A stretch of DNA of 56,433 nt from IMG/VR virus record IMGVR_UViG_3300025467_000526, positions 64,001 through 120,433 of that record. One strand, given 5' to 3'. Made by a program: the position numbers and the translations under genes. Numbering within the stretch: position 1 is the stretch's first letter; the number at the start of each line of letters is the position of its first letter. The notes beneath the pieces are model-generated. The model did not search any database. It was given only the letters and a program-made list of their open reading frames with translations, and was not told where the DNA came from. Below, piece by piece: positions 8,847 to 42,699 of the stretch. The DNA comes from a virus. Taxonomy: Duplodnaviria > Heunggongvirae > Uroviricota > Caudoviricetes.

Positions 8847-8870
8847 GTAGTACAACAAATAGGAGCGACT

Positions 8871-24121: not shown

Positions 24122-24125
24122 AGGT

Positions 24126-24179: not shown

Positions 24180-24189
24180 AAAAAAATTT

Positions 24190-26856: not shown

Positions 26857-26857
26857 T

Positions 26858-27634
26858 ATGAAAAAAATTATAATTGCGGGTCACGGATTTGTTGGCAAAG
26901 CAGTAGCCAACTCATTGAAAGAAACTATAATACACGTTGTCGATCCAAAATATACAACTGGAGAAATAAAACACTACCCAGATGCAGACGGGGTTATTAT
27001 TTGTGTTGGTACTCCTAGTACACAATTAGGAGATTGTGATGTTAGTCAAATCTATAGTGTAATGGAACAAGTTCCCGAATCTATGCCGGTATTGATCAAA
27101 TGTACCGTACGTCCAGACTATTTGAATAAGATTGTAACAGATTTTCCTAAACATAGTATTGCGTATAGTCCAGAATTTTTACGTGCGGTAAGTGCTAACG
27201 AAGACTTTGCTAATCAAGAATATATGATTTTAGGCGGTGCTAACCCCAACAATATTTGGAGTGAATTATTTACTAGTTCACTTAAAAACCTAAATACAAT
27301 TGAATATTGCACACTGACAGAAGCAAGTATGTTGAAATATACCACTAATTGTTTCCTAAGTGTCAAGGTAGCGTTCTTTAATCAAATTTATGATATGTGT
27401 CAATTAAATGGTGCAGATTATAATACAATTATTGAACTGTTAAAGTTGGATGAGCGTATGGGTAGTAGCCATATGCAAGTTCCAGGTTCCGACGGCAGTA
27501 GAGGATTTGGTGGTGCTTGTTTCCCCAAGGATACAAATGCATTTATACATTATGCTGATAGTGTACAAATATCTCACACATTGGTAGAATCGGCAGTAAA
27601 ATACAATAAACGAGTTAGAAAAACATTGACATAG
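26858..27634 (+). CDS. UDP-glucose/GDP-mannose dehydrogenase family (short form)
   Basis: GHGFVG Rossmann, ICVGTP, YSPEFLR, LKYTTNCF, GFGGACFPKD with catalytic Cys; C-terminal domain absent. Confidence 0.88.
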   Translation: MKKIIIAGHGFVGKAVANSLKETIIHVVDPKYTTGEIKHYPDADGVIICVGTPSTQLGDCDVSQIYSVMEQVPESMPVLIKCTVRPDYLNKIVTDFPKHSIAYSPEFLRAVSANEDFANQEYMILGGANPNNIWSELFTSSLKNLNTIEYCTLTEASMLKYTTNCFLSVKVAFFNQIYDMCQLNGADYNTIIELLKLDERMGSSHMQVPGSDGSRGFGGACFPKDTNAFIHYADSVQISHTLVESAVKYNKRVRKTLT

Positions 27635-27655
27635 TCACAAAAACCTATATAATAA
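27626..27655 (+). promoter_or_regulatory. Sigma70 promoter of clamp-dpdA operon
   Basis: TTGACA-16 nt-TATAAT; 15-mer AAACCTATATAATAA shared with folE promoter. Confidence 0.75.
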
Positions 27656-27673
27656 ACAAACATGGAGAATCAT

Positions 27674-28405
27674 ATGAAAGACTTTTTACAAGACCTAGTA
27701 GCACATACACACAGCCTGGGCTTTTTGCCGTTGGTTAGAGTTAGTTCTACTACTAAAGAAACTAAGATAGAATCGATTGCCGAAGATCGTTCGGTTATTG
27801 TTGATGCAAAAACACATAACCCAATCGACCAGTTGGAAGGCGTATTTGGTATGCCGGATCTTAATAAACTAGATTTGCATTTAAAATGCCCAGAATATAA
27901 AGAAGGTGCCGGTATCAGTGTAGTTAAACAAGACCGTAACGGCGAAATTATTCCAACAGGACTACATTTTCAAAATGCATTAGGCGACTTTGAAAATGAT
28001 TATCGTTTTATGAATGAACAGATCATTAACGAAAAATTAAAGAGTGCTAAATTCAAAGGAACTACATGGGATGTTGAATTTGAACCAGCAGTTGCCAGTA
28101 TTCAGAAATTAAAATATCAAGCGGCAGCCCACACAGAAGAAAAAACATTTCAAGTTAAAACTGAAAATGGAAATTTAGTATTTTATTTTGGCGATGCTAA
28201 TACACACGCAGGTAGCTTTATATTCCAATCAGGTGTTACTGGTAAATTAAAACAAATGTGGGCATGGCCTGTGAACGCTGTACAAGCAATTTTGGCACTA
28301 TCAGGTGACAAGACTATGCGTATTGCAGATGCAGGTGCATTACAAATTACAGTAGATAGCGGTATCGCAGTTTACAATTATATCTTACCAGCACAGAGCA
28401 AATAA
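27674..28405 (+). CDS. Probable sliding clamp (gp45-like)
   Basis: About 245 aa two-domain beta-rich pattern near polB; recalled resemblance to jumbo-phage clamps; start after GGAG SD. Confidence 0.6.
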   Translation: MKDFLQDLVAHTHSLGFLPLVRVSSTTKETKIESIAEDRSVIVDAKTHNPIDQLEGVFGMPDLNKLDLHLKCPEYKEGAGISVVKQDRNGEIIPTGLHFQNALGDFENDYRFMNEQIINEKLKSAKFKGTTWDVEFEPAVASIQKLKYQAAAHTEEKTFQVKTENGNLVFYFGDANTHAGSFIFQSGVTGKLKQMWAWPVNAVQAILALSGDKTMRIADAGALQITVDSGIAVYNYILPAQSK

Positions 28406-28406
28406 T

Positions 28407-28760
28407 ATGACACAGGATCAAATACTGCTAGCATGCGGTGTATGGCTAATACTAATGGTTATTAGCTATACACATAGCGGTTGGCACAATATGCGTGACT
28501 GCTATATGATGTGGTTTACAAAAGAGTATTGGACTGCTTATAATACAGTCGAGTTTATCAGCTGGTTAGCTAAGGCAATTATTATTATTCCTGGATTAAT
28601 TTTTGGTATTCAAATTTGGGAACTATATTATTTGACCTTATTAACCAGTGTAACCCTTATTTGGGCCAGCCGTAAAAAGGCATTGCCAACACTTGTAGGT
28701 TTTAATACCATGTGGGCTTGGTTAAGTCTTATGGTTCTAGCACAACATTGGATAAAATGA
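28407..28760 (+). CDS. Small multi-pass membrane protein
   Basis: About four hydrophobic segments; stop overlaps dpdA-like start (ATGA). Confidence 0.75.
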   Translation: MTQDQILLACGVWLILMVISYTHSGWHNMRDCYMMWFTKEYWTAYNTVEFISWLAKAIIIIPGLIFGIQIWELYYLTLLTSVTLIWASRKKALPTLVGFNTMWAWLSLMVLAQHWIK

Positions 28761-30460
28761 ATAAAAATTTAACAGCTACTCAGAATGATTATGCGTACTT
28801 CCTGCCGGCAACGTCGGGATTCTTTAGTACATACATAGGTAAACAACGGTATGGCAACTATGTTGATCCTGCACGTATTCCTGCTAGCTTTGGACCCATG
28901 GGGGTTGAAGCAATGAACTATCTAAATCCCAAAGCGGCATTTTACTTTGACCATTGTTTGTACTCAGCTGGACATGCTAATTTAGATTTGACTAAACCTG
29001 ATCCAAGCGAAGATATGTTTCGCAATAGAGATCGTAGTACTAGTTGGGTACTAGGAGATTCAGGCGGATTCCAAATTGGTAAAGGTGTGTGGGCCGGTGA
29101 ATGGCGAGATCCGCTTGGACCAGAAGTTGCGGCCAAATGGATAGAAGTTAATGCAAAAGGTGTTGAGCTCGTTCCACAACTAGATGCCACAGGTAATCCT
29201 AAATTAGACAAGAATGGAAATCCTAAAATGTCTAAAATTGATCATCCAAAATTGTATCAAGCACAGTTAGATGCGGCACAAAAGAAACGTGAACAAGTTC
29301 TTGCTTGGATGGACGCCTTAATGGATTATGGCATGGTACTTGATATTCCTGCATGGGTTGAACGTAGTCCTGTTGGACGTGCGGCCACTGGTATTGAAAG
29401 TTATCAACAGGCTGTAGCGGCAACCAAGTATAACAATGAATATTTCATTAAACATCGCACAGGTGCTTGTAAATTCTTAAATGTATTACAAGGTGAAAAT
29501 CACGCACAGGCAGAAGACTGGTATCAACAAATGAAAGACTTTTGCGATCCTAAGAAATATGACAAACCATTTAATGGTTGGGCTATGGGCGGACAAAATA
29601 TGTGCGATATTCACTTGACGTTAAAACGTCTAGTGGCGTTACGCTTTGATGGACTTCTTGAAAAAGGACATCAGGACTGGATGCATTTCTTGGGCACCAG
29701 TAAGTTAGAGTGGGCATTAATTTTAACCGACATACAACGTGCTATAAGGAAATATCATAATGAAAACTTTACCATCTCTTTTGATTGCGCCTCGCCGTTC
29801 CTTGCAACAGCAAATGGACAAATCTATGTCCAAACAGAAATTACCGATAGAGAAAAATGGCTCTACCGCATGTTGCCGTCTCTTGATGACAAAAAGTACG
29901 CTCAAGACACAAGACTCTTCCAAGACGTAGTAGTACAAGACGGACATTTTGATAGTTTTACCACAAGCCCTATCATGGATGGTGTCAAAGTTAACGAAAT
30001 TTGTATCTATGGTCCAAATGATATGAATAAAATTGGTAAGATTGGCAAGACTAGTTGGGATAGTTTTACCTATGCTATCATGATGGGACATAATGTTTGG
30101 ATGCATATCAATGCTGTACAGGAAGCCAATCGTCAATATGATGCAGGTAAGTGTCCGACTATGCTGGTACAAGAAAAATTTGATAGGCTTTATGCTAAAG
30201 ATGTAATCGAAGCTATATTTGCTACAGATGATCGAGATACTGCCAACGCTATTATTGATGAATTTAGTAAATTTTGGATGGCTATTCCCGGAACACGTGG
30301 CTATACTGGTAAAAAGACAGTTAATGCTACTACCAAATATTTCGAATTGTTTGACGAAGTAGACGCAACGAGTGTACAATTAGAAGATGAACCAGACTTT
30401 TCTGAAGAAGTTAGTGACAAACTTGACGAACTCGAGGCCAGTGTACATGACATTACCTGA
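28757..30460 (+). CDS. dpdA: TGT-fold guanine transglycosylase, DpdA-like (DNA 7-deazaguanine insertion)
   Basis: TGT motifs in order: GDSGGFQ, VLDIP, VLQG, GWAMGG, HFLG, SFDCAS, GHN; lacks the CxCxxC zinc site of tRNA Tgt; clustered with folE/queE. Confidence 0.78.
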   Translation: MNKNLTATQNDYAYFLPATSGFFSTYIGKQRYGNYVDPARIPASFGPMGVEAMNYLNPKAAFYFDHCLYSAGHANLDLTKPDPSEDMFRNRDRSTSWVLGDSGGFQIGKGVWAGEWRDPLGPEVAAKWIEVNAKGVELVPQLDATGNPKLDKNGNPKMSKIDHPKLYQAQLDAAQKKREQVLAWMDALMDYGMVLDIPAWVERSPVGRAATGIESYQQAVAATKYNNEYFIKHRTGACKFLNVLQGENHAQAEDWYQQMKDFCDPKKYDKPFNGWAMGGQNMCDIHLTLKRLVALRFDGLLEKGHQDWMHFLGTSKLEWALILTDIQRAIRKYHNENFTISFDCASPFLATANGQIYVQTEITDREKWLYRMLPSLDDKKYAQDTRLFQDVVVQDGHFDSFTTSPIMDGVKVNEICIYGPNDMNKIGKIGKTSWDSFTYAIMMGHNVWMHINAVQEANRQYDAGKCPTMLVQEKFDRLYAKDVIEAIFATDDRDTANAIIDEFSKFWMAIPGTRGYTGKKTVNATTKYFELFDEVDATSVQLEDEPDFSEEVSDKLDELEASVHDIT

Positions 30461-30707
30461 TGAACGCTTTAGAAGTATACAGCGAACAGAAGAATTTTTA
30501 CAGGATTTAATGAATCCTCAAAAGACTCCACGTATTCCAAAAGAAGTACGTGAGCAAGCTCGTTGGTGTTTGCGTCATTATCCTAGCTATCATAATTTAA
30601 AAGAAATCGAACGTGCGGCTCCAGAAGTTATAACCGAACGGATGGAAGATGTACAACGTATGATTAAGTATTGGGAAGAAGGGAAGAAGTTTACAAATGA
30701 AAACTAG
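30447..30707 (+). CDS. BPSL0761-like small protein
   Basis: MTLPDERFRS...TPRIPKEVREQARWCLRHYP (family recalled from memory). Confidence 0.65.
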   Translation: MTLPDERFRSIQRTEEFLQDLMNPQKTPRIPKEVREQARWCLRHYPSYHNLKEIERAAPEVITERMEDVQRMIKYWEEGKKFTNEN

Positions 30708-31578
30708 TCTTGTTGTAGGCATGGGTATTGGCAATCTATATGCTACCGTATTAGGTAAACTTGGTCACGGTATTGTTACTGTAGATAGCGATCCTGCTAA
30801 AGGTGCAGACTTTTTAACAGTGGATGCGGCTATTGTAGCATGTCATATGTTTGATACAGTACATATTTGTACTCCTAATTTTACACACTTTGATATTGCT
30901 ACTAAGGTTGCTAAATGTTCTAGTATGGTGTTTATCGAAAAACCTGGCGTCAGCACTAGTAATATATGGTATACCTTAGTTAAGACATTTCCAAGTACAC
31001 GCTTTATGATGGTTAAAAACAATATGTGGCGTAGTAATATTACCGAATTATCAGAATCAGCAAGGCGAGCTAAGTCCGTAAATATCGAATGGACACGTAA
31101 GAACTGTATACCTAGTCCCGGCAGTTGGTTTACTACACGCAAACTGGCTTTTGGCGGAGTTAGTCGAGACTTAATGCCTCACTTGCTAAGTCTATATATT
31201 GCTATGAATCCTGATTGGCGCAAGGATCAAGTAAATGGTCGAGGCGCACAGATGATGTGGGAACTAAAAGACATAGATAGTACAGAGTATGGCGTTGTTA
31301 ATCCGAATGGCACATACGATGTGGATGACAAGTGTAATATAAACTTTGGTAATAAATGGCATTGTAGTGCTAATTGGCGAAGTATGGACTATGAAAATAG
31401 TGCCATAGAGTTTATAATGCAAGATAACACAGTAGAACGTTTTGATTTAGGTTGGTGTCCGGAAGATGCTTACCTAAATATGATTAAAGATGCTGTTGAA
31501 AACCTAAATAACGATAACTTCTGGCAAAAACAACTAGAACAAGATATATGGATACACAAACAAATCGAAGTTTTATGA
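30697..31578 (+). CDS. Gfo/Idh/MocA-family oxidoreductase
   Basis: VVGMGIG, HICTPNFTH, FIEKPG, GGVSRDLMPH. Confidence 0.85.
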   Translation: MKTSLVVGMGIGNLYATVLGKLGHGIVTVDSDPAKGADFLTVDAAIVACHMFDTVHICTPNFTHFDIATKVAKCSSMVFIEKPGVSTSNIWYTLVKTFPSTRFMMVKNNMWRSNITELSESARRAKSVNIEWTRKNCIPSPGSWFTTRKLAFGGVSRDLMPHLLSLYIAMNPDWRKDQVNGRGAQMMWELKDIDSTEYGVVNPNGTYDVDDKCNINFGNKWHCSANWRSMDYENSAIEFIMQDNTVERFDLGWCPEDAYLNMIKDAVENLNNDNFWQKQLEQDIWIHKQIEVL

Positions 31579-32480
31579 TGGTTAAATGTTTACAAACTGT
31601 CGGCGACGGTGTATTCAAAGAAGTAGATTATGCCAAAAACGATATAGCATTTAACGAAATTGAAGTTAAAGCAGTTATGACTGGTGTTTGTCGCAGTGAC
31701 ATCGACATGATGATGGGCGATTTCGGGCCACTACCATTGCACATGCAAGGGCACGAAGGTATCGGTCAAGTGACTAATATTGGTTCTCAAGTACGAACAG
31801 TTAATATCGGTGACTTTGTTGCTACACGTGGTGAACCGGCCTATGCCGACTACTACAATGTTAAAGAAGATGAATATGTTAAAATTCCCGAAGCACATCC
31901 TCGTTACATTTTAGAACCTGTAGCTTGTGGCATTAATCTTATTAATCAATCTAAGACGTATTTCCAGGACAAGCAAGGCAGAAATGAAAATAACAGAGTA
32001 CTAATTATTGGCAGTGGGTTTCTTGCCTGGGTAGCTTATCATACACTACGGCTAAATGGTTATATCTTCCACGTGGATGTGCTAGGACATAGTAATCGAG
32101 CCCTATGGAAGGATAAACTATTGTCCAGTACTATTGAAAACTATGATATTGTTATCGATCTAAGTGGTAACTATGAGCTAGGTACACAGATTAACCTAAA
32201 TAACAATGCGGTCATTATCGACGGAGTTGGCAAGGCTGTTAGCAAACAAGAAGCACAGGCTCAACTTTGGAAGGCTGTTACTACCATCAAACCAAGTCCA
32301 CGCAATCCAGAATTTATAGATTGTATGCATATGGCAAAATATTGGATTGAAAAAGGCTACTTAGAGGTTGATTCTTTTTGGACAAGATGTTACAATCGTA
32401 CTACAGAATGGCAACAAGCGTTTGCGGACGGCGTTAATCGTCCGAAGGGTTACAGCAGAGGTTATATCAAATGGGATTAA
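31575..32480 (+). CDS. Zn-dependent MDR (alcohol/polyol dehydrogenase-like) oxidoreductase
   Basis: GVCRSD, GHEG.G.V, GDFV, LEPVAC, IIGSG; structural-Zn Cys loop absent. Confidence 0.85.
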   Translation: MMVKCLQTVGDGVFKEVDYAKNDIAFNEIEVKAVMTGVCRSDIDMMMGDFGPLPLHMQGHEGIGQVTNIGSQVRTVNIGDFVATRGEPAYADYYNVKEDEYVKIPEAHPRYILEPVACGINLINQSKTYFQDKQGRNENNRVLIIGSGFLAWVAYHTLRLNGYIFHVDVLGHSNRALWKDKLLSSTIENYDIVIDLSGNYELGTQINLNNNAVIIDGVGKAVSKQEAQAQLWKAVTTIKPSPRNPEFIDCMHMAKYWIEKGYLEVDSFWTRCYNRTTEWQQAFADGVNRPKGYSRGYIKWD

Positions 32481-33010
32481 ACACAGAAGAACGACAAGGT
32501 GTCGTTTACTTTACAGGTTATGAAGTAGAGCATACTATTTGTCATGGCATGTTTACATTATTTGTTGTAGGCACGCCACCTGTAGAAGATATCCTGCGTA
32601 TTGCCGATGACAGTCAAGCAATGTTAGATGAATCTAAACGTATCAAGCATATCTATTTTGGTACTAGCCAAAGTTTTAATCCTAAAGCAATTAGCCACGA
32701 AGAATATCGAGCGTGGGATAATGTTATTATTCCATGTTTAAAGAAAGACTACTGGGTGACTTTAGATTTTGATGTCAGTCACTCTGAAGGTGTACTTGAA
32801 TCTGGATACAGTGAATATCCGAGATTCGTACCTATGATTAGTGTTAAGTTACCTTACATTAATCAACACAACTATAACGCCACACTTAAACTGGATGATC
32901 GCACTTGGGGTGCTACAAATCCAGGTGTGTGGACACATCAACTACATGATCTAATGAGTATGGACAAATATACTCACTGGGATCAGTATACACAAGACAC
33001 ATCATTATGA
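32471..33010 (+). CDS. Conserved hypothetical protein in modification locus (179 aa)
   Basis: EVEHT, TLFVVG, HIYFG, LKLDD..WGATNPGVWTH; overlaps both neighbours. Confidence 0.75.
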   Translation: MGLNTEERQGVVYFTGYEVEHTICHGMFTLFVVGTPPVEDILRIADDSQAMLDESKRIKHIYFGTSQSFNPKAISHEEYRAWDNVIIPCLKKDYWVTLDFDVSHSEGVLESGYSEYPRFVPMISVKLPYINQHNYNATLKLDDRTWGATNPGVWTHQLHDLMSMDKYTHWDQYTQDTSL

Positions 33011-33609
33011 ATACACAAATTCGACAACTTATAGAACAGCAGATTTGTCAACCATTAGTCGGACTTATAGTTCCAACTAACCAAGGAGGAAAAGCTGGTC
33101 GCCATGTTGAACTTATACTACGAAATATGGGCGTTCCTATCCAACCCGGAGAAGGTGCCGATTTTACGTTAGTACTTAATTTATTTAATATTACATACTA
33201 TGTAGAAGTTAAGACTAGAGATGTATCTGCTACAAGTCCTCATACTATTGGAACTATACATCCTTCAAAAGTTGCCAATACATTATATGAAGATTCAAGC
33301 ATTTGGCAAAAATTACAATATCAGATAAGAGTTACTACAGAAAATTTTAAAATTATCAAAGCTGAATTATTTGATTTTACAGTTCCACATATTCAACAAA
33401 AATTTAAAGAAGCATTTATTCACGGAAAAGATCAAATTGTTTCTAACACAGCCTTAAGTTGTACACATGTCAAAGGTCATTGGGGATATTTTGAAAAATG
33501 TAATTCTAGATCCGATAGTTTTTACTTTAGATTAAGTAAAGATGATATGCCAGCAATAGAAAGAATGTCCCGTTCAAATTATCAAAACCTTTTTGAGGAA
33601 ACTATATGA
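33007..33609 (+). CDS. PD-(D/E)xK restriction-endonuclease-like protein
   Basis: E..L....GEGADF...VEVKT catalytic pattern; AT-richer than flanks. Confidence 0.6.
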   Translation: MNTQIRQLIEQQICQPLVGLIVPTNQGGKAGRHVELILRNMGVPIQPGEGADFTLVLNLFNITYYVEVKTRDVSATSPHTIGTIHPSKVANTLYEDSSIWQKLQYQIRVTTENFKIIKAELFDFTVPHIQQKFKEAFIHGKDQIVSNTALSCTHVKGHWGYFEKCNSRSDSFYFRLSKDDMPAIERMSRSNYQNLFEETI

Positions 33610-34004
33610 CACAAAGTACACTACGTCAAGACTGGCGACCAAACAAGATGATCTGGGTCACCTTCCAAAAAGAAGGCATCCATGCTTATCCAGCGGCCGC
33701 AACTGATCCAAACTTAGCAACAGGAGATGAATATGATGTATCGTTTTTGGCTACTCCTCATCGTCATATATTCCATTTTCGTGTTTGGCTTTCAGTTACC
33801 CACAACGACCGTGATGTCGAATTCATCCAGTTCAAACGCTGGTTGGAAAATTTATACAAAGACAGTATACTAAAACTGGATTATAAAAGTTGCGAGATGA
33901 TGTCAGACGATTTGTATGACATGATTTCACAAAAGTATCCAAGCCGTGAGGTTTGGATTGAGGTCTCCGAAGACGGAGAAAATGGTTCATTTATTAAATA
34001 TTAA
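33606..34004 (+). CDS. QueD-like T-fold protein, DpdL-type (predicted CDG decarboxylase)
   Basis: EGIH, LATPHRHIF (LxxxHRHxF), EFIQFKR, SCEMM; no QueD catalytic Cys before HxH. Confidence 0.7.
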   Translation: MTQSTLRQDWRPNKMIWVTFQKEGIHAYPAAATDPNLATGDEYDVSFLATPHRHIFHFRVWLSVTHNDRDVEFIQFKRWLENLYKDSILKLDYKSCEMMSDDLYDMISQKYPSREVWIEVSEDGENGSFIKY

Positions 34005-34015
34005 GGAAAGCTATA

Positions 34016-34273
34016 ATGGCTAAGAATTACAAGGACTTTAGTTATTTCGAAACACGTCCCGATATTGTTAAATTATTTGATGATCTCGAGGCATTCCATG
34101 ATTGGTGCCGTACAGAACTCTGCGAGTTTAACGAAGCTCACCTCTACAACAGAGAAAGCTGGCAGTGGCGTAACTTCGACAAGACACGTCGTCCTAAGAA
34201 GCCTTTCACAGGCGAACGTAAACCTTATCTAGGTAAAAATCCGAGATACAATAATGACCGTATTTCTAATTGA
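34016..34273 (+). CDS. Hypothetical protein (85 aa, basic C-tail)
   Basis: SD AAGGA, overlaps next gene. Confidence 0.7.
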   Translation: MAKNYKDFSYFETRPDIVKLFDDLEAFHDWCRTELCEFNEAHLYNRESWQWRNFDKTRRPKKPFTGERKPYLGKNPRYNNDRISN

Positions 34274-35354
34274 TTTAGAAGCTGTTGAAACTAGGTACAC
34301 GGGTCAATGGAAGACTCATGTACCTGCTCTCTTACGAAAGGCAGGACACAATGTTCAAATTATATCTGGGCCTACGGATATTCCTACAGCCACTACTCCT
34401 GGTGCTTTTCTTAATTTTGGCGGCACCAATATATATAAGTCTCGACAAGTGGAACAAATGGGGCGTCTATTTTGCTCCGGATCAGTTCAGCCTGGCGATC
34501 ATTTCATCTTCACTGATGCTTGGCACCCTGGTATCATAAACTTAAAGTATATGAGTGAGTTGTTGCAAATTCCTGTAACAACACACGGCCTATGGCATGC
34601 TGGCAGTTATGATCCTCAAGATTTCTTAGGACGTCTAGTCGGTGCTAAACCTTGGGTTAGACACGCTGAACAAAGTTTTTATCATGCGTTTGATCATAAT
34701 TACTTTGCTACTAAATTTCATATGGAATTATTCTTTAGAGAATTACTCAACGGAGGATTTCAAAATGAAAATCCTTGGTATGAAGAAGATTTAGCCGAAG
34801 TATTAGACAGTAAATTTCCCAAGATGCAACAAACAGGGTGGCCGATGGAGTATATGGAAGATATACTACTCATGTATAAGAACATGCCCAAGCGTAATCT
34901 AATTCTTTTCCCTCATCGCATCGCACCCGAGAAGCAAGTTGAGATTTTCAGAGACTTAGCTACGCATTTACCGCAGTATGAATTTGTAGTGTGTCAGGAT
35001 CAACAGCTAACAAAAAATGAATATCATAACTTGTTAGGCGAAGCAAAGATGGTGTTTAGTGCTAACTTACAAGAAACACTAGGCATTAGTTGCTATGAAG
35101 GTGCGGTAGTTGATGCTATTCCGCTAGTACCCGATAGACTTAGTTACAGCGAAATGTATTATGAAGGATTTAAATATCCAAGCAAATGGACAGAAGATTT
35201 TAATGCTTATACTGTATATCGTCCCGATCTGTGTCGTAAGATTATAGAGTTAATGGACAATCATACACGCATGATTCCCACTGTTCGAAAACAAACAAAG
35301 GACTTACATGACAACTTCTTCAGTGCTAACAAACTCCTTCAATTGGTCAAGTGA
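34254..35354 (+). CDS. GT-B (GT4-like) glycosyltransferase
   Basis: FPHRIAPEKQ, ExxxxxxxE motif ETLGISCYE, PLVPDRLSY. Confidence 0.85.
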   Translation: MTVFLIDLEAVETRYTGQWKTHVPALLRKAGHNVQIISGPTDIPTATTPGAFLNFGGTNIYKSRQVEQMGRLFCSGSVQPGDHFIFTDAWHPGIINLKYMSELLQIPVTTHGLWHAGSYDPQDFLGRLVGAKPWVRHAEQSFYHAFDHNYFATKFHMELFFRELLNGGFQNENPWYEEDLAEVLDSKFPKMQQTGWPMEYMEDILLMYKNMPKRNLILFPHRIAPEKQVEIFRDLATHLPQYEFVVCQDQQLTKNEYHNLLGEAKMVFSANLQETLGISCYEGAVVDAIPLVPDRLSYSEMYYEGFKYPSKWTEDFNAYTVYRPDLCRKIIELMDNHTRMIPTVRKQTKDLHDNFFSANKLLQLVK

Positions 35355-35742
35355 TTCTGTTGGTATAACAGCTCAAGAAATACAACCGTTAACGTCTGAT
35401 CAAATATCTGCCCTAAGTAATATTACTATTAATAGTACTACAGGGTCTAGTTATTACTATACAGGTGCAGGAATATCGAGTGGTAATGCTTTTACCATTA
35501 GTAGTACTGGTGCTGTTTCAGGTACTATCGGTTCGGGTCCTACTATTACTCTTACAGGTTCAGCAGGCTACGAATATAAGATGCCTATAGAATTTGTAGA
35601 TACATTGCCCGATATAAGTAGAATACAAAAAATGTGCGATGAATATCCTGGATTAAAAATAGCATTTGAAAAATTTAAAACAACTTATCAACTAGTGAAA
35701 GACCATTATGATACTCCAGAAGATCAAAGACCTCGTCCTTAA
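35308..35742 (+). CDS. Hypothetical protein, Ser/Thr-rich N-part and YPGLK helical C-part
   Basis: ORF; similar architecture to 36177-36569. Confidence 0.65.
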   Translation: MTTSSVLTNSFNWSSDSVGITAQEIQPLTSDQISALSNITINSTTGSSYYYTGAGISSGNAFTISSTGAVSGTIGSGPTITLTGSAGYEYKMPIEFVDTLPDISRIQKMCDEYPGLKIAFEKFKTTYQLVKDHYDTPEDQRPRP

Positions 35743-36199
35743 TTGGCTTGAACGCCATGACCGTAAACGCATCATTATGGATCGTGCAGAGAACGAACCA
35801 TATCTCGAACGTTACTATGTTCTATTCAAAGAACGTGTAACATTCCCTTACAACGTATTTTTACACAAGTTCTTAAAATCAGATCCAGATGATGTTCATG
35901 ATCATCCTTGGAACTATTTTACTATTATTCTTGCTGGCGGCTACTATGAGTGGATCGCTCAATTTAACGAAGATGGTACAAAGAACTGTGAAGTAAGAGT
36001 ATGGCGTGGCCCCGGCAGTTTCCGTTTTGGTAACACACATACCTTCCATCGTATTGAATTAAAAGAAGGCGTTACTCCATGGACATTGTTCTTTGTGGGC
36101 AAACGCCAACGCGAGTGGGGATTTATTGTAGAAAATAAATGGATCCACTTTGAAAAATATTTAAGTGATAGAAAGAATGGCCTACTTCCCAACAATTAA
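35708..36199 (+). CDS. Cupin-fold protein
   Basis: HKFLKSD.DDVHDHPW and HRIEL cupin motifs. Confidence 0.75.
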   Translation: MILQKIKDLVLNWLERHDRKRIIMDRAENEPYLERYYVLFKERVTFPYNVFLHKFLKSDPDDVHDHPWNYFTIILAGGYYEWIAQFNEDGTKNCEVRVWRGPGSFRFGNTHTFHRIELKEGVTPWTLFFVGKRQREWGFIVENKWIHFEKYLSDRKNGLLPNN

Positions 36200-36569
36200 T
36201 ACAACTGCTACTTCAGTATATACTAATGGTACCAGCACAGCTACTATACCAAATGGTGGTTATTTAACGTCGACTGGAACTAACACTGTCTGGACTACTG
36301 GTACTAGTGTTGCCAATCCTTATGATGCCGCACTGACAATCAGTCAATCCAACCCGCCTACATTAGATGTCAAAGGTAATCTTGTAATAAATGGCCGCGA
36401 TCTGGAAGAACGGCTAAAGACAATTGAAAAAGTCTTGCAAATTCCAGAAAGAGATGTTACACTAGAACGTAAACATCCAAAGCTAAAGAAGTTATATGAT
36501 GACTACATCAATGCTTTGGGCAAATATAGAACATTTGAAGCAATTAAAGGAGATGAAGATGCAAGTTGA
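36177..36569 (+). CDS. Hypothetical protein, Thr-rich N-part and HPKLK helical C-part
   Basis: ORF; likely start ATG 36177. Confidence 0.65.
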   Translation: MAYFPTINTTATSVYTNGTSTATIPNGGYLTSTGTNTVWTTGTSVANPYDAALTISQSNPPTLDVKGNLVINGRDLEERLKTIEKVLQIPERDVTLERKHPKLKKLYDDYINALGKYRTFEAIKGDEDAS

Positions 36570-36798
36570 ACAATTACACGAATCAATTAAAGATACCTAC
36601 AAAGAAATAGTTATCAAAGAACAAGAAGGTTTTCGACTTGTGTTAAAGAAACACGAAGTACTTGCTCCAAAAGGTTTGTTTGCTCTTGATTTAGAACAGC
36701 AACATTTAAAAGATGGCGAAGTTGTTGACTCACAAACATATAATTTCTTTATGACTAAGGAAGAATGCCAAACATTGGCAAGTGGCCTAACAGCATGA
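36559..36798 (+). CDS. Hypothetical protein
   Basis: AGGAG SD before ATG 36559. Confidence 0.65.
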   Translation: MQVEQLHESIKDTYKEIVIKEQEGFRLVLKKHEVLAPKGLFALDLEQQHLKDGEVVDSQTYNFFMTKEECQTLASGLTA

Positions 36799-37286
36799 AA
36801 AAAATCCACTACACTTGGCAACAAGTCGAAGGAGCGGTATTAGATATCGCTCGCCAAATGTCGGCACACTATTGGCGTCCCGACTATATTGTAGGTATAA
36901 CCCGCGGTGGACTTGTGCCAGCTAATTTATTAAGTCAGTATACCGGTATTCCGATGAAATCGTTAGACGTAAGTCTACGCGACGGAGGAGATTGTGTTAG
37001 TAACTGTAATATGGCCGAAGATGCTTATGAAGGTAAACGGATTCTTGTTGTTGATGACATCAATGATCAAGGATCTACTGTCGCTTGGATTAAAAAAGAT
37101 TGGCAATCTAGTTGTTTACCCGGTGAGACCCAATGGCAATATGTTTGGGGCGATACAGTTCGCTTTGCAGTTTTAACACACAACCTCAGCAGTGAATTCA
37201 AAGACCCAGACTATTATGTTTGGTCTGTAAACAAAGCAGAAGAAGACTGCTGGTTAGTTTATCCTTGGGAGGATTTTTGGTTATGA
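36795..37286 (+). CDS. Type I phosphoribosyltransferase (Gpt/Hpt-like)
   Basis: IVGITRGGLVPA, PRPP loop ILVVDDINDQGST, WLVYPWE. Confidence 0.9.
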   Translation: MKKIHYTWQQVEGAVLDIARQMSAHYWRPDYIVGITRGGLVPANLLSQYTGIPMKSLDVSLRDGGDCVSNCNMAEDAYEGKRILVVDDINDQGSTVAWIKKDWQSSCLPGETQWQYVWGDTVRFAVLTHNLSSEFKDPDYYVWSVNKAEEDCWLVYPWEDFWL

Positions 37287-37480
37287 CTATGACTTCAGCA
37301 TTAATAAAACTTACATTTGGTATTGCATTTATTGTAATTGCAGTTGTATTTGGACCCCTTGTAGGTATTTGGAGTTTGAATACTTTATTTCCAGTATTAA
37401 ATATCCCATTTACTTGGCAAACTTGGTTAGCTTTCAATGTATTATTTGGAGGCAGTCTTGCTACGAGGTTAAAGAAATGA
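37283..37480 (+). CDS. Small two-TM membrane protein
   Basis: Hydrophobic ORF, ATGA-coupled. Confidence 0.6.
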   Translation: MTMTSALIKLTFGIAFIVIAVVFGPLVGIWSLNTLFPVLNIPFTWQTWLAFNVLFGGSLATRLKK

Positions 37481-37635
37481 ATGAGTTAACTGTTTCAGAA
37501 ATTGAAGATAAGATTAAAAAAGTCGAAGAAGATTTGAGATCTGCCGATACAGAAAATGCACGTATGGCACTAACTAGCTACATTGATTATCTTCAAGATG
37601 AATTAAAAGAAGCAAAATTAAATGGACGTTACTGA
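37477..37635 (+). CDS. Small coiled-coil protein (52 aa)
   Basis: MNELTVSEIEDKIKK...; ATGA-coupled, 3' part of track ORF 37369-37635. Confidence 0.6.
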   Translation: MNELTVSEIEDKIKKVEEDLRSADTENARMALTSYIDYLQDELKEAKLNGRY

Positions 37636-37840
37636 TATCCTTTGGGAAATCAAAGTACCTTGGCAGGGTCAAAAAGAATATTGGTGGAATGAATTATGTG
37701 CCGATATTGTAGAAGTGTTTGGATTGCCCGGTGATAGATATACTAGTCATCCCCATACTAATTGTATGTTTTTTCGTTTTAAATCAAAAAAAGATTACCA
37801 TTTATGCAAAATACTTTTATCAGACAAAATTGGGATGTAA
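37622..37840 (+). CDS. Hypothetical protein (72 aa)
   Basis: Overlapping chain of small genes. Confidence 0.6.
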   Translation: MDVTDILWEIKVPWQGQKEYWWNELCADIVEVFGLPGDRYTSHPHTNCMFFRFKSKKDYHLCKILLSDKIGM

Positions 37841-38007
37841 TCACAATCCTTATTATAGCATTAACTGCCTGCATCTATACAGCATGGTATGTAACTGTAC
37901 ATCCTGCCATTACTGTAAAATATGATTGTTCAATTTCGGAAATTAGTCCTGACTATCCTATACCTGTTAAAGAAGCATGCCGTAAACTTCGAGCACAAAA
38001 TAATTGA
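37804..38007 (+). CDS. Small membrane-anchored protein
   Basis: One TM; YDCSISEISPDYP..VKEACR. Confidence 0.55.
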   Translation: MQNTFIRQNWDVITILIIALTACIYTAWYVTVHPAITVKYDCSISEISPDYPIPVKEACRKLRAQNN

Positions 38008-38035
38008 CAACGACCTAAATAAACCTATATAATAA
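38004..38035 (+). promoter_or_regulatory. Sigma70 promoter of folE-queE operon with embedded late box
   Basis: TTGACA-18 nt-TATAAT; TAAATA 38016-38021. Confidence 0.75.
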
Positions 38036-38050
38036 CACATAGGAGTAATA

Positions 38051-38821
38051 ATGACTGAATCCAGAATATACGAACACGAAAACATTCTTGCTGGCGCAGA
38101 ACAGCAAGGCGATGATGACAAAAATTATAAAGAATGTAATCTAGCAGATGTTATCCGCTTTCAAATGAAACGACGAGGCAAACGTTTTTGGGCCGGTGAC
38201 AACATTAGCGAGTTTGTCGACGAAGAACAAAAAGAAGTCTTAATCGAAGAAGCTACTAAGGCTTTTGAAAAAGTATTAGATTGTTTGCTTATTGATCGTG
38301 AAAATGATCCTAATAGCAAAGGTACAGCCAAGCGATTAGCTAAAATGTATTTCAACGAAATAATGAGTGGCAGATATGAACCAGCACCAGACGCAACAGC
38401 ATTTCCCAACGACTCGGTGGATCGATACGAAGGTATGTTGGTGGTACGTAGTGAGCTCCGCTCTATGTGCAGTCATCATCATCAGCCCGTTACTGGTGTC
38501 GCTTACATTGGCATCATCGCCGCACAAAAACTTATTGGTTTGTCTAAGTACACTCGTATTGCTCAGTGGTGTGCTCGTCGCGGGACTCTCCAGGAAGAGT
38601 TGTGTAACGATATTGCTAGGGAAATCCAAAAAGCTACAGGAGCCATGGATTTAGGTGTGTATATTCAAGCTACACATGGTTGCTGTGAGAATCGCGGTAT
38701 TATGGCCAAGAGTAGTTTAACACAGACCACAGTACTCAAAGGTGCGTTTACTAATGATGCTGGCACAAAGAAAGAATTCTTTGACAATATTAAAATGCAA
38801 CAGGAGTATGCTTCTAAATGA
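38051..38821 (+). CDS. folE: GTP cyclohydrolase I
   Basis: TAKRLAKMY, SMCSHHHQP, GLSKYTRI, LQEEL, HGCCENRG. Confidence 0.96.
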   Translation: MTESRIYEHENILAGAEQQGDDDKNYKECNLADVIRFQMKRRGKRFWAGDNISEFVDEEQKEVLIEEATKAFEKVLDCLLIDRENDPNSKGTAKRLAKMYFNEIMSGRYEPAPDATAFPNDSVDRYEGMLVVRSELRSMCSHHHQPVTGVAYIGIIAAQKLIGLSKYTRIAQWCARRGTLQEELCNDIAREIQKATGAMDLGVYIQATHGCCENRGIMAKSSLTQTTVLKGAFTNDAGTKKEFFDNIKMQQEYASK

Positions 38822-39186
38822 CTGACCTAAGAATACAAGTACCAGCTGAAGGTATTATGCAAACTAACGACTGGGGTAAGAGTAAAGTCTACCGAGTTGC
38901 CTGTGAGTGTGGTGCTTCTGAGCACGATCATCATGTATGGGTAGAAGCTGACGATCATGGCGAAGTCAGTGTTACTGTTTATACAACTGTAAGAAGCAAT
39001 TGGTGGAGCAAGGATCGCTGGCATCATATTTGGACATTGTTAACTAAAGGCTATATCGATACAGAGTCTACCCTAGTTATGCGTAAACAACAAGCATTTA
39101 ACTATGCTCATACACTATTAAGTGCTGTTGAAGATGTTGAAAAATTCAAAGAGGAACGAGATGCAGAACGCCAAACAAATAACTGA
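38818..39186 (+). CDS. Hypothetical protein (CECG..H..H)
   Basis: ATGA-coupled; possible zinc site. Confidence 0.7.
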   Translation: MTDLRIQVPAEGIMQTNDWGKSKVYRVACECGASEHDHHVWVEADDHGEVSVTVYTTVRSNWWSKDRWHHIWTLLTKGYIDTESTLVMRKQQAFNYAHTLLSAVEDVEKFKEERDAERQTNN

Positions 39187-39391
39187 TGAATTAATTCACC
39201 GTATGAAAACTACAGACCTAAATAAGTTTGAGATCAAACGTGAAGTCGGTGACAATTGGATTCCTAATGGAACTGTTCCTTTTGATATTAGTGCTAGTAA
39301 AGGTATCGCTACATTTACAGTATGGGCAGAAAGTATACAAGATGCAGAAGATCAAGTAAGTCAATATTTAGAGAAAGATGAAGATGAGTAA
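39161..39391 (+). CDS. Hypothetical protein
   Basis: GAGG SD before ATG 39161. Confidence 0.6.
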   Translation: MQNAKQITDELIHRMKTTDLNKFEIKREVGDNWIPNGTVPFDISASKGIATFTVWAESIQDAEDQVSQYLEKDEDE

Positions 39392-40229
39392 AATTAAAAT
39401 TGCAGAATTATTTTATAGTGTACAGGGCGAGGGTAGATATATGGGAGTACCTAGCGTGTTCCTTAGAACTTTTGGCTGCAATTTTTCTTGTAAGGGCTTC
39501 GGTATGCCACGTGGTGAGTTAAGTACGGAAGCAGAAGATATTTCAGAAGTAGTACATTTATATAACAAGTATGAAGAACTTCCGTTAGTTTCTACTGGTT
39601 GCGATAGTTATGCTAGCTGGCATCCTAGTTTTAAAGATCTAAGTCCAATGCTTACTAGTGAAGCTATCACAGATCGTATTATGGAAATTATTCCACATGG
39701 TGAATGGCACGACGAGCATTTAGTTATTACAGGCGGTGAACCTTTACTAGGTTGGCAACGTGCTTATCCAGACTTATTGAACAATCCTAAAATGAAGGCA
39801 TTAAAAGAGATCACGTTTGAAACAAACGGTACTCAGAAACTTACGCCAGAGTTTAAAGGATACTTGACTAAATGGAATAGTGAAGTAGGTAAAGAACTTA
39901 CATTCAGTGTAAGTGCTAAACTTCCGGCTAGTGGTGAAAAGTGGGAGGAAGCTATTCTCCCAGAAGTTGTTTGTGAATATGAACAAGTTGGAACAACGTA
40001 TTTGAAATTTGTAGTAGCAACAGAAGAGGATGTTAAAGATGCAGAACGAGCAGTTAAACAATTTAGAGAAGCGGGTTTTAAAGGTCACGTATATCTTATG
40101 CCTGTCGGTGGTGTTGAGTCTGTTTATAATCTCAATGCTAAAGCCATTGCCCTTGCCGCAATGAAGCGTGGCTGGCGTTATAGCGATAGATTGCAAGTTC
40201 CATTATTTAAAAACGAATGGGGTACCTAA
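39378..40229 (+). CDS. queE: 7-carboxy-7-deazaguanine synthase (radical SAM)
   Basis: ELFYSVQGEG, FLRTFGCNFSC...CDS (CX3CX36C), VITGGEPLL, ETNGT, KFVV, YLMP, RLQV. Confidence 0.92.
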   Translation: MKMSKIKIAELFYSVQGEGRYMGVPSVFLRTFGCNFSCKGFGMPRGELSTEAEDISEVVHLYNKYEELPLVSTGCDSYASWHPSFKDLSPMLTSEAITDRIMEIIPHGEWHDEHLVITGGEPLLGWQRAYPDLLNNPKMKALKEITFETNGTQKLTPEFKGYLTKWNSEVGKELTFSVSAKLPASGEKWEEAILPEVVCEYEQVGTTYLKFVVATEEDVKDAERAVKQFREAGFKGHVYLMPVGGVESVYNLNAKAIALAAMKRGWRYSDRLQVPLFKNEWGT

Positions 40230-40369
40230 TGTTAGAGATGATTGTTGCATTACTTTTAGTAGCAGTTTTAATAGGAGTGATTATGATTAATACTCCTAAA
40301 AATAATACGGCATGTACTGGTAATTGCCGACAAGGTAGACTTTGTGATTGTAAGGATAAAAATGATTAA
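40229..40369 (+). CDS. Small TM protein with Cys cluster (46 aa; not in ORF track)
   Basis: TAATG-coupled to queE; MLEMIVALLLVAVLIGVIMINTPKNNTACTGNCRQGRLCDCKDKND; stop overlaps next ATG. Confidence 0.7.
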   Translation: MLEMIVALLLVAVLIGVIMINTPKNNTACTGNCRQGRLCDCKDKND

Positions 40370-40790
40370 ACTATTAAAAAAATGGATGGGAATTGATAAG
40401 TTAGAAGCAAACTTAGAAAATCTTAAAAAACAAGAAGCCGATGCTATTGCATCAACAGCTACAGCTCAACAAGCTGAACAAAAAGCAAAGATGACTCCAA
40501 AAGAACGTGCCACTGCCAAAGGTGAGCCGTGGGTAGCTGTTTTGGACACCCATGTTAATAAAGATAATATTAGAAATGGATTCTTTGAGCTTGACTGGAA
40601 CCCAGAATTTATTGTACAATTAAAGCAAGAGGGCTACGGATTTGAAGGTGATCCAGAAGAGGAAATTGTGGATCGTTGGTTCCGAGATTTGGCAAGAAAC
40701 ATGTTAGCCGAAGAAGGACAAGACACAAGTCGTGGCATGGGTTATATTAACGTAAGTAAATTGCCTAATGGCAGAGCACAAATAGAATGA
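40362..40790 (+). CDS. Conserved jumbo-phage protein
   Basis: GEPWVAVL, GFFELDWN, EEIVDRWF. Confidence 0.75.
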   Translation: MIKLLKKWMGIDKLEANLENLKKQEADAIASTATAQQAEQKAKMTPKERATAKGEPWVAVLDTHVNKDNIRNGFFELDWNPEFIVQLKQEGYGFEGDPEEEIVDRWFRDLARNMLAEEGQDTSRGMGYINVSKLPNGRAQIE

Positions 40791-41782
40791 CATACATTAT
40801 AGTAGATACTGCTAACACTTTCTTTCGTGCTAGACACGTTGTTCAAGGCAGTGCCGATATCAAACTTGGCATGGCCTTTCATATTACACTCAACAGTATC
40901 AAAAAAGCATGGCAAGATTTTAACGGTAGTCATATTGTTTTCTGCCTCGAAGGTCGCTCGTGGCGTAAGGACTACTACAAGCCTTACAAAGCAAATAGGC
41001 AAGAAACTCGTGCGGCTATGACGCAGAAAGAACAAGATGAAGACAAGTTATTCTGGGAAGCATTTGACGAGTTTAAAAATTTCATTACAGAAAAGACCAA
41101 TGCTACTGTAATGCAACATCCTAATCTAGAAGCTGACGATTTAATTGCTGGTTGGATACAGGCGCATCCAGATGCAAAACACGTTATTGTTTCAACAGAT
41201 GGAGATTTTGCACAACTTATCGGTCCTAATGTAAGTCAGTACAACGGTGTAGGTGATTTACATATTACACACGAAGGAACATTCGATGCCAAAGGTAAAC
41301 CCGTTAAAGACAAAAAGACAGGCGAGCCTAAACCAGCACAAGACCCAGAGTGGATGCTGTTCGAAAAATGCATGCGTGGTGATACCAGTGATAATGTCTT
41401 CTCGGCGTATCCAGGTGTGCGTACTAAAGGTTCTAAAAACAAAGTTGGTCTTACTGAAGCGTTCGAAGACCGTAAAAGCAAAGGATTTGCGTGGAACAAT
41501 CTCATGCTTCAGAGATGGGTTGACCACAATGGAGTCGAACACAGAGTTTTAGAAGATTATCATCGTAATGTTCAATTATGCGATCTTACAGCACAACCAG
41601 AAGATATTAAAGTTAAAATTAGAGAAACTATCGAAGCTAATGCAAAACCTAAAACAGTAGATCAGGTTGGTATCCGTATGCTAAAATTCTGCAATGCATG
41701 GGATATGAAGAAAATTGCAGACAACATTCAGCAGTATGCAGAACCGTTCCAAGCAAAGTATCCAGAAAAGGAAACAGTATAA
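40787..41782 (+). CDS. 5'-3' exonuclease / flap endonuclease (T4 RNase H-like)
   Basis: IVDTAN, EGRSWRK...YKANR, LEADDLIA, STDGDF, GDTSDNV. Confidence 0.93.
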   Translation: MTYIIVDTANTFFRARHVVQGSADIKLGMAFHITLNSIKKAWQDFNGSHIVFCLEGRSWRKDYYKPYKANRQETRAAMTQKEQDEDKLFWEAFDEFKNFITEKTNATVMQHPNLEADDLIAGWIQAHPDAKHVIVSTDGDFAQLIGPNVSQYNGVGDLHITHEGTFDAKGKPVKDKKTGEPKPAQDPEWMLFEKCMRGDTSDNVFSAYPGVRTKGSKNKVGLTEAFEDRKSKGFAWNNLMLQRWVDHNGVEHRVLEDYHRNVQLCDLTAQPEDIKVKIRETIEANAKPKTVDQVGIRMLKFCNAWDMKKIADNIQQYAEPFQAKYPEKETV

Positions 41783-42699
41783 TGGCAACTAGAGAAGAAA
41801 AACAAGAATTGATGGAAATTCTTAAATTTACACCACGTACTTATAAAATCTCAATGTGGGGTTACGGTGGTGAAAAAGTCATGGGTACCGTAGATCGAAA
41901 GATTTATGATTACTTTAAACAACGTAGGCTTGATCTAAGCGACTATTGCTGGAACAGTGACTATGCAGAAGATCATAACATTCCTGAAGACATGCAACCT
42001 TTTCCTTCTGGTAGCTGGTACGAAGGCGACGGCATGGGTCATGCAGGTGGAGTAAGTCGTAGTGCTGGCACACTACAGATTGAAGACGAAAACGGTAATA
42101 CTGTCTTTGAACGCAGTTTAGAAGATATGGACGGCGGCAGCGATGACAGTGTAGAATGGGAATGTAACGATGAAGTCTGGATTGGTAGTCAACCTGACGG
42201 TACTGTGGTATTCCTTGGTAACTCAAATGAAAAAGGTACATTCTTTGAAGCAGACTTAGAATTAAAAATGCCTTTTGATATTACTAAATTAACACTAGGC
42301 TACGATGAAATTGACGGTGAAGAAATTGTTAATGCTGTAAAATACGATGGCGAGGATATTGACAACTGGGGCGGCAGTACTGATGGCAAAAGTAGTGACT
42401 TTGGTTTCTATATTGCCGGCAGTAAAGATGCTACGGGCAAGTGGGAAAAGTACACCAACATGGATGATATTGAATATCCCATGACCGAATGGTTCCCTAA
42501 AAAGAGCAAACCTGTCCGTGTAGGCAATTACATGATTAAAACCGCAGGTAAAAAGTCCTGGACTCATCGAGGGCTTTGGACTGGTACAAAATGGGTAAGC
42601 TCATGGACCGAAGAATCAGAATTTGACACAGCAGAAGAAATCAAAATTAAAGAATGGCAAGGACTTGCCATTGATCCAGATGCAGAGGCATCGGTATAA
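41782..42699 (+). CDS. Acidic hypothetical protein with Trp-rich C-terminal module
   Basis: TAATG-coupled; D/E-rich body. Confidence 0.75.
   Translation: MATREEKQELMEILKFTPRTYKISMWGYGGEKVMGTVDRKIYDYFKQRRLDLSDYCWNSDYAEDHNIPEDMQPFPSGSWYEGDGMGHAGGVSRSAGTLQIEDENGNTVFERSLEDMDGGSDDSVEWECNDEVWIGSQPDGTVVFLGNSNEKGTFFEADLELKMPFDITKLTLGYDEIDGEEIVNAVKYDGEDIDNWGGSTDGKSSDFGFYIAGSKDATGKWEKYTNMDDIEYPMTEWFPKKSKPVRVGNYMIKTAGKKSWTHRGLWTGTKWVSSWTEESEFDTAEEIKIKEWQGLAIDPDAEASV

Follow-up and report, generated by a model that had tools for sequence, protein, structure and literature searches.

A probable 7-deazaguanine DNA-modification module with a companion GT4-type glycosyltransferase in a tailed-phage contig: a candidate source of a glycosylated deazapurine

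The window analyzed here, a stretch of 56,433 nucleotides (positions 64001-120433 of the 120,433-base IMG/VR viral record IMGVR_UViG_3300025467_000526, Caudoviricetes), comes from an uncultured jumbo phage and carries a locus in which genes of 7-deazaguanine synthesis and insertion are interleaved with those of a 366-amino-acid (aa) glycosyltransferase (GT) and several oxidoreductases. An earlier note, made from the sequence alone, had read it as a deazaguanine DNA-modification locus, and our analysis makes it very probable that the locus is such a module, of the DpdL/DpdA type; FolE and QueE are encoded in the locus and QueD elsewhere on the contig, on which no QueC was found. A functional link between the GT and the deazapurine is well founded, since the GT family accompanies DpdL and DpdA across many unrelated phages. 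To the proposal that the deazapurine is glycosylated by the GT, and that the sugar ends up in DNA, we would give about an even chance. The genes that are central to the argument are the following.

28757-30460, + strand: long, divergent DpdA-like transglycosylase of the tRNA-guanine transglycosylase (TGT) superfamily, 567 aa, identified by motifs and by a profile search against PDB
33606-34004, + strand: DpdL-type T-fold protein, predicted 7-carboxy-7-deazaguanine (CDG) decarboxylase, 132 aa, with the motif LATPHRHIF
34254-35354, + strand: GT-B/GT4-type (retaining-type) glycosyltransferase, 366 aa, identified by homologues, an AlphaFold2 (AF2) model and structure searches
38051-38821, + strand: GTP cyclohydrolase I (FolE), Pfam 7e-38
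39378-40229, + strand: QueE-like radical-SAM CDG synthase, phrog_2076 3e-53, weak match to Pfam Radical_SAM

Members of the GT family adjoin DpdL and/or DpdA in six phage lineages, namely PA5oct, Phosso, ACP17, X1/BUDD, BCSR5 and the clade of the window. The gene orders in the five lineages other than the window clade are given below, where x is any other gene and g179 is a companion gene described further on.

PA5oct: DpdA-GT-DpdL
Phosso: clamp-x-DpdL-GT-x-FolE...QueE, with a DpdA-like gene ~170 kb away
ACP17: QueD-FolE-g179-DpdA-GT-DpdL-QueE
X1/BUDD: GT-DpdA-DpdL-QueE
BCSR5: GT-DpdA-x-QueE

The GT also lies beside DpdL and/or DpdA in 80 close relatives of the window (presence matrix), and in distant metagenomic contigs, where GT identity falls to 29-39%, a DpdL-type gene is directly beside the GT in all seven contigs with enough flank, while on an eighth, short contig g179 adjoins the GT. 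Among 50,697 phage records, a GT homologue was found in 22, a DpdL homologue in 28 and both in 17, compared with ~0.01 expected; the joint arrangement of GT and DpdL is not due to chance. All complete genomes, and all contigs examined that were long enough, contained a DpdA-type gene, which is immediately beside the GT in PA5oct, ACP17, X1, BCSR5 and the records L094 and L097.

A profile search for the GT in RHph_I1_18, Bakedbeans and phiST, all of them DpdL phages, gave no match, with ACP17 and X1 as positive controls; Ahp1 was covered only by a run without a positive control. The DNA of Cellulophaga phage phiST holds plain 2'-deoxy-7-deazaguanosine (dDG) (PMC10516641). Since DpdL phages without the GT exist, the GT is an optional add-on, and one that belongs specifically to the pathway's DpdL branch.

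The same distribution bears on the possibility that the phage makes plain dDG, as phiST does, and that the GT serves some other acceptor, such as DpdA, the clamp, another base or a host molecule. This is unlikely, though three considerations speak for it: the set of FolE, QueD, QueE, DpdL and DpdA fits the published dDG set, 7-deazaguanine offers no obvious O-nucleophile, and the acceptors of GT4 enzymes are very diverse. However, in every informative lineage sampled the GT family occurs only beside DpdL and/or DpdA, which is hard to explain with an unrelated acceptor, and the GT-negative DpdL phages indicate that no generic step depends on the GT.

The 366-aa protein is a real and probably active GT-B/GT4 enzyme, judging from its homologues and predicted structure. 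When the GT, the DpdA-like protein, g179 and three further proteins of the locus (g200, the 106-aa and the 85-aa protein) were scanned directly with Pfam, PHROG and NCBIfam, none gave a match, and the window GT in particular matches neither Glycos_transf_1 nor Glyco_transf_4 of Pfam; Glycos_transf_1 is matched by 54 of 72 representatives of its family at E<=0.1 (best 4.5e-9). The whole length of the AF2 model (pLDDT 95.3, pTM 0.92) can be superposed on retaining enzymes of the GT4 type, with Z 20-26 over 285-320 residues (Foldseek, VIA), among them SPS, BshA, MshA, GlgM and PglA (Z 22-26) and the tetrahydrobiopterin glucosyltransferases 5zes (Z 20.9) and 9v0l (Z 20.8). The EX7E signature of GT4 enzymes is intact, E274 being conserved in at least 90% of the family and E282 invariant, and the basic residues R222 and K227 of the C-terminal domain, both conserved at 90% or more, are taken as contacts of the nucleoside diphosphate (NDP) phosphates. 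The family comprises at least 1,112 clusters when grouped at 50% identity, and over 8,000 at 90%; no curated model is dedicated to it.

The GT-B/GT4 assignment of the earlier note is thus borne out, while the likeness to T4 glucosyltransferases that it drew is seen at the level of the GT-B fold only; the closest structures are GT4 enzymes, many of them with small-molecule acceptors. The T4 beta- and alpha-glucosyltransferases (BGT, AGT) are not among the top 50 Foldseek or VIA rows for the GT, an absence that does not exclude kinship, and queuosine mannosyltransferase is missing from the top structural rows, which again is an absence from lists only. Two candidates in this connection were dropped: 8xsg, the best PDB sequence match of the GT, is an Actinobacillus glucoside glucosyltransferase not related to DNA (PMC12159676), and in Vibrio phage 2.275.O the 370-aa gene that follows DpdA proved unrelated to the GT.

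Acceptors of the small-molecule kind lead to another explanation, in which the GT glycosylates a free deazapurine or a pterin-like intermediate that never enters DNA, the product being huimycin-like, a stored or detoxified form, an effector or an intermediate of the pathway. Small-molecule GT4 enzymes such as 5zes and 9v0l are among the closest structures, HuiG provides a precedent, and the Phosso GT lies with base-synthesis genes, far from DpdA. Still, we consider this distinctly unlikely, given the DpdA-type gene in all complete genomes and long contigs examined and its position next to the GT in PA5oct, ACP17, X1, BCSR5, L094 and L097, the placement of the modules among replication genes, and the apparent modification of PA5oct DNA at G.

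Two records of distant phages contain more than one glycosyltransferase. In L094 (6289-9077), the deazaguanine cluster has a canonical GT4 enzyme together with a member of the family studied here, and in L097 there are two paralogues of this family (8001-9032 and 11582-12679), one beside DpdL and the other beside DpdA. Such pairs may mean that a disaccharide is made or that there are two acceptors.

Pfam gives no match for the 567-aa protein, its DpdA and TGT models match nothing on the contig, and phmmer against PDB finds nothing for it; its link to TGT is based on a profile search of PDB and on a language-model atlas. In the alignment of the window protein with homologues from PA5oct, Vibrio phage 2.275.O, ACP17, X1 and BCSR5 (six sequences), DSGGxQ (D101-Q106), D196, QG, HxLG and D343 (in FDC) are invariant, and the first and last of these motifs are in register with DSGGFQ and FDCV of the Z. 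mobilis TGT. The top ten PDB matches of the six-sequence profile are all TGT structures (best E=0.002), and the atlas search leads to TGT/DpdA clusters. Moreover, the homologues in PA5oct and Vibrio phage 2.275.O adjoin Que genes. The CxCxxC...H zinc site is absent from the 567-aa sequence, and the BCSR5 homologue has CNCPIC. On these comparisons we accept the protein as a divergent DpdA-type enzyme, though without the zinc motif.

The T-fold protein, described in the earlier note as QueD/DpdL-like, can be assigned to the DpdL type. Its LATPHRHIF fits LxxxHRHxF, which replaces the CxxxHGH of QueD and was identified as the signature of DpdL, the predicted CDG decarboxylase, by Cui et al. 2023 (PMC10516641). 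The protein is 33% identical (E=5e-8) to the DpdL gene region of phiST, which lies between MazG and an ATPase, and 53-65% identical to DpdL of ACP17, PA5oct and Phosso. A separate, canonical QueD/PTPS is encoded on the same contig outside the window (contig 40869-41345), while QueC was not found on the contig, which covers ~33% of the genome, and no QueC above the Pfam cut-off is present in five complete GT-positive phage genomes. In Vibrio phage Bakedbeans (L099, 5212-6363), the DpdL match falls at the C-terminal end of an annotated 383-aa open reading frame (ORF) that has no Pfam match; this ORF may be a fusion of DpdL to an N-terminal domain or may have a mis-called start.

Taken by family membership, FolE, QueD and QueE would convert GTP to CDG, and by analogy with the enzymes of Cui et al. 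2023 (PMC10516641) the DpdL-type protein would turn CDG into 7-deazaguanine, and the long DpdA-like transglycosylase would exchange guanine in the phage DNA for the deazapurine. The GT4-type enzyme would then glycosylate the deazapurine with an NDP-sugar of the host as donor, so that the virion DNA would contain a glycosylated 7-deazaguanine derivative rather than plain dDG. As to the order of the last two steps, there is a slight lean toward the sugar being added to the free base, or to a precursor of it, ahead of the insertion by DpdA, because the Phosso GT stays with DpdL, FolE and QueE with the DpdA-like gene ~170 kb off, and because the nearest structures include GT4 enzymes with small-molecule acceptors and HuiG acts on a free base.

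Several points weigh against a sugar in the DNA. Chemically, 7-deazaguanine has no hydroxyl handle, and the options for attachment are N2, a C-glycoside at C7 or the carboxyl group of CDG. Gene neighbourhood indicates a functional link and is no proof of a reaction, while the sampled GT members share ancestry and thus represent about a dozen independent lineages rather than hundreds. The window GT and the DpdA-like protein are below the Pfam thresholds, their assignment being based on homologues, profiles and predicted structure, and the decarboxylase activity of DpdL is itself only predicted. The contig is estimated to be ~33% complete, and gene absences are therefore provisional. Finally, we found no literature report of a glycosylated deazaguanine in DNA, in a search that most subscription journals lay outside of.

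The earlier note had also postulated a sugar-activation module composed of a UDP-sugar 6-dehydrogenase and other oxidoreductases. Three such genes are present.

26858-27634, + strand: short dehydrogenase of the UDP-glucose dehydrogenase (UGDH) family, 258 aa, with an ATG at 26858, identified by Pfam
30697-31578, + strand: Gfo/Idh/MocA oxidoreductase, accessory, Pfam 26.8 bits (cut-off 24), atlas 0.98
31548-32480, + strand: medium-chain, Zn-type (MDR) dehydrogenase, accessory, Pfam ADH_N and NCBIfam, motifs GVCRSD and GHEG

The UGDH-like protein matches the central (9e-23) and N-terminal (1e-11) domains of Pfam UDPG_MGDP_dh, has the Rossmann GxGxxG motif (GHGFVG), and its GFGGACFPKD is aligned with the catalytic-Cys motif GYGGSCFPKD of 4a7p. 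It aligns to residues 74-303 of 446 in 4a7p and ends at residue 258 (~303 of 4a7p), so that the C-terminal UDP-binding domain is missing, and there is no UDPG_MGDP_dh_C match in any ORF of the locus. Its NCBIfam scores are far below the equivalog cut-offs. Thus, the N and central domains and the catalytic Cys of the proposed UDP-sugar 6-dehydrogenase are there, and its UDP-binding domain is not. The short form is kept in relatives and shifts position within the locus, sometimes directly following the GT, and it is also found next to GTs in Microbacterium phages. In Campylobacter phage CP220 (L096), a 256-aa short UGDH-like gene (6995-7765) is situated two genes after a QueE-like gene, with a second radical-SAM gene close by. 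In CP220, G is reported to be replaced with 2'-deoxy-7-amido-7-deazaguanosine (dADG), whose base carries no sugar.

Gfo and MDR co-vary, and of the close relatives in which DpdA, g179, DpdL and the GT are preserved, about half have neither; UGDH-like and Gfo vary independently among relatives. The co-occurrence with dpdA that the earlier note had looked to is seen for the GT, which keeps company with DpdL and DpdA, and is not seen for Gfo and MDR in those relatives. In the PA5oct record (L089, 250869-253146), a Gfo-MDR-g179 cassette with the same order (33/40/42% identity) is located 25 kb from DpdA-GT-DpdL, and among the records listed in the search there is no short UGDH-like match in this phage. 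By Pfam, no aminotransferase, acetyltransferase or epimerase of the Wbp type and no nucleotidyltransferase is encoded in 23600-43436.

A Wbp-like donor pathway, in which the UDP-sugar 6-dehydrogenase, Gfo and MDR build an NDP-uronic acid that the GT then attaches, would be a special case of the sugar-in-DNA proposal. It agrees with the preserved catalytic motif of the UGDH-like protein, the position of the short UGDH gene directly after the GT in some relatives and beside a GT in Microbacterium phages, and the location of Gfo and MDR between dpdA and dpdL in the window. Nevertheless, we regard it as very doubtful: the whole UDP-binding domain is lost, the UGDH-like gene is also found near QueE in CP220 with its reportedly sugar-free base, about half of the GT-positive close relatives do without Gfo and MDR, the PA5oct cassette lies apart and has no listed UGDH-like partner, and genes of the WbpE or WbpD type or a nucleotidyltransferase were not found. 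Because of the missing UDP domain, the accessory nature of Gfo and MDR and the lack of Wbp-type partners, the sugar-activation module is unproven, and its analogy to WbpA/WbpB, also weakened by the short UGDH of CP220, is not upheld; UGDH-like, Gfo and MDR seem to be accessory tailoring enzymes.

Together with a cupin encoded downstream, these proteins may be clade-specific tailoring oxidoreductases acting on the attached sugar, and the loss of the UDP domain is compatible, speculatively, with an enzyme that works on the sugar after its transfer. In the fullest version of this scheme, which we hold to be rather improbable, the product would be a tailored glycosyl-7-deazaguanine: the GT4 enzyme would add a hexose, the UGDH-like protein lacking its UDP domain would oxidise it to a hexuronate after the transfer, and Gfo, MDR and the cupin would modify it further.

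Every gene that the earlier note had named is present on the + strand (by Pfam, PHROG, motif or profile evidence), as are all genes described here between 23600 and 43436. Their order is 2OG-Fe oxygenase, PolB, UGDH-family, clamp-like, small membrane protein, DpdA-like, 106-aa protein, Gfo/Idh/MocA, MDR, g179, g200, T-fold, 85-aa protein, GT, cupin, purine phosphoribosyltransferase, FolE, QueE and 5'-3' exonuclease. From dpdA to the T-fold gene, each start overlaps the preceding stop, as had been noticed before: 30387 precedes the stop at 30460, 30697 that at 30707, 31548 that at 31578 and 32471 that at 32480, and at 33007/33010 and 33606/33609 start and stop share an ATGA. Between the T-fold gene and the GT there is a single 85-aa gene (34016-34273). 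Megablast of the whole locus against the 50,697 phage records gave no match. The remaining genes and sites are as follows.

23600-24121, + strand: 2-oxoglutarate-Fe(II) (2OG-Fe(II)) oxygenase, directly upstream of PolB
24190-26856, + strand: PolB
27626-27653, + strand: perfect 12/12 sigma-70-like site TTGACA-16-TATAAT, a consensus match only
27662-28405, + strand: clamp-like protein, 247 aa, phrog_12062, located after PolB in relatives
30387-30707, + strand: 106-aa protein, conserved in the clade
32471-33010, + strand: g179, 179 aa, core companion gene, AF2 pLDDT 81
33007-33609, + strand: g200, 200 aa, no Pfam, PHROG or NCBIfam match
34016-34273, + strand: basic protein of 85 aa, encoded between DpdL and GT and conserved in the clade
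35708-36199, + strand: cupin-type metalloprotein, phrog_4786 3e-36
36765-37286, + strand: purine (xanthine/hypoxanthine-guanine type) phosphoribosyltransferase, Pfam Pribosyltran, NCBIfam XPRT 2.4e-11
38004-38033, + strand: perfect 12/12 sigma-70-like site TTGACA-18-TATAAT, upstream of folE, a consensus match only

The g179 gene adjoins DpdA in ACP17 and the GT in L093, and comes third, after Gfo and MDR, in the PA5oct cassette. A Foldseek search of PDB had no match for it at E<=0.001, and the best Z in the wide VIA search was 6.7. An assignment as QueE-like, considered because of QueE chains in VIA (Z 5.7-6.4), was dropped, since hhalign against the QueE alignment gave a probability of 0.1%, and relaxase-like atlas matches (0.89) were below the trust level. 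Between g179 and dpdL, g200 is present only in two near-identical contigs, with weak matches (28-42%) in a few others, and looks like a recent insertion; a PD-(D/E)xK nuclease-like nature has been suggested for it from the sequence alone.

The phosphoribosyltransferase is kept with the module in the clade, weakly in PA5oct, and is beside the GT on one distant contig. It plausibly salvages the guanine released by base exchange, or it could make the deazapurine nucleotide. The cupin is frequent in the window clade and directly follows the GT in some relatives. The clamp-like protein is homologous to a Phosso gene annotated as sliding clamp and also has a homologue in PA5oct. The 2OG-Fe(II) oxygenase is nearly absent from the 80 relatives (one 32% match), and so probably does not belong to the module but is a passenger. 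The site at 27626, just upstream of the clamp-like gene, is the probable head of a transcription unit that includes dpdA through the GT, and the two consensus sites suggest early or middle transcription of both halves of the locus by the host polymerase.

All glycosylated DNA bases known to us are pyrimidines, namely glucosyl-hydroxymethylcytosine, base J and glycosylated 5-hydroxymethylcytosine (5hmC) and 5-hydroxycytosine (5hoC), and all 7-deazaguanine DNA bases that we know of carry small 7-substituents. If real, a deazapurine with a sugar attached would add a new class to the hypermodifications of DNA, with a bearing on restriction, CRISPR, glycosylase-based defences, sequencing of environmental jumbo phages and enzymatic labelling of DNA, and, given the large size of the GT family, the trait would be widespread in nature. 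The tailored variant, if true, would mean that a glycosylated purine occurs in DNA, and that a sugar is tailored on the nucleobase itself, each for the first time. The cultured phages PA5oct, ACP17, Phosso, X1/BUDD and BCSR5 make the prediction testable now.

Among known systems, the WbpA/WbpB pathway to UDP-uronic acids of the Pseudomonas O-antigen resembles the window in having UGDH-family and Gfo/Idh/MocA enzymes in one locus. The two differ in that the UGDH-like protein of the window is devoid of the UDP-binding domain and equivalents of WbpE, WbpD and WbpI are not present; furthermore, the UGDH-like and Gfo genes of the window lie apart and vary independently among relatives.

The alpha- and beta-glucosyltransferases of T4 are, like the window GT, phage GT-B enzymes; they place sugar on a modified base and serve evasion of restriction, which makes them a functional analogy. 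No similarity beyond the GT-B fold was seen among the top structural matches. Their acceptor is the hydroxymethyl group of a pyrimidine (5hmC) in DNA, whereas that of the window GT may be a free purine analogue. Another parallel is provided by HuiG of the huimycin pathway (Kutzneria albida), which puts N-acetylglucosamine on a preQ0-derived free base (PMC7439116); the GTs of the huimycin gene cluster family carry the GT4 domain PF13439 (bioRxiv 2026.04.15.718813). By description, not by sequence, HuiG is similar in being encoded beside homologues of FolE, QueD, QueE and QueC and in glycosylating a 7-deazaguanine base. Unlike the window, it belongs to a secondary-metabolite cluster without DpdA, uses a cyano/methoxy deazapurine acceptor and yields a free small molecule.

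The dDG system of Cellulophaga phage phiST consists of FolE, QueD, QueE, DpdL and DpdA, of the DpdL/DpdA3 type (Cui, Hutinet et al., NAR 2023, PMC10516641). Shared with the window are FolE, QueD and QueE, a T-fold protein with LxxxHRHxF, a divergent TGT-fold DNA transglycosylase, the lack of QueC and replication genes as neighbours. In phiST, there is no member of the window GT family and the DNA has plain dDG, while the window adds the GT4 enzyme, g179, a purine phosphoribosyltransferase and several oxidoreductases, and its DpdA-like protein is much longer (567 aa) and without the CxCxxC zinc motif.

The Pseudomonas jumbo phage PA5oct (Wroclawvirus) is syntenic with the window in PolB, the clamp-like gene, a small gene, DpdA-like, GT, DpdL, QueE and RNase H, with identities of 31% for DpdA-like, 43% for the GT and 56% for DpdL. 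It differs from the window in that DpdA is immediately followed by the GT, Gfo, MDR and g179 form a cassette at another place and the short UGDH-like gene has no listed match. PA5oct DNA resists several restriction enzymes at G-containing sites, a pattern that points to modified G (PMC12191111). In the case of ACP17, expression of dpdA and dpdL in E. coli gave no dDG, and Cui et al. suggested that further enzymes may be needed (PMC10516641); an added glycosylation step may explain this result.

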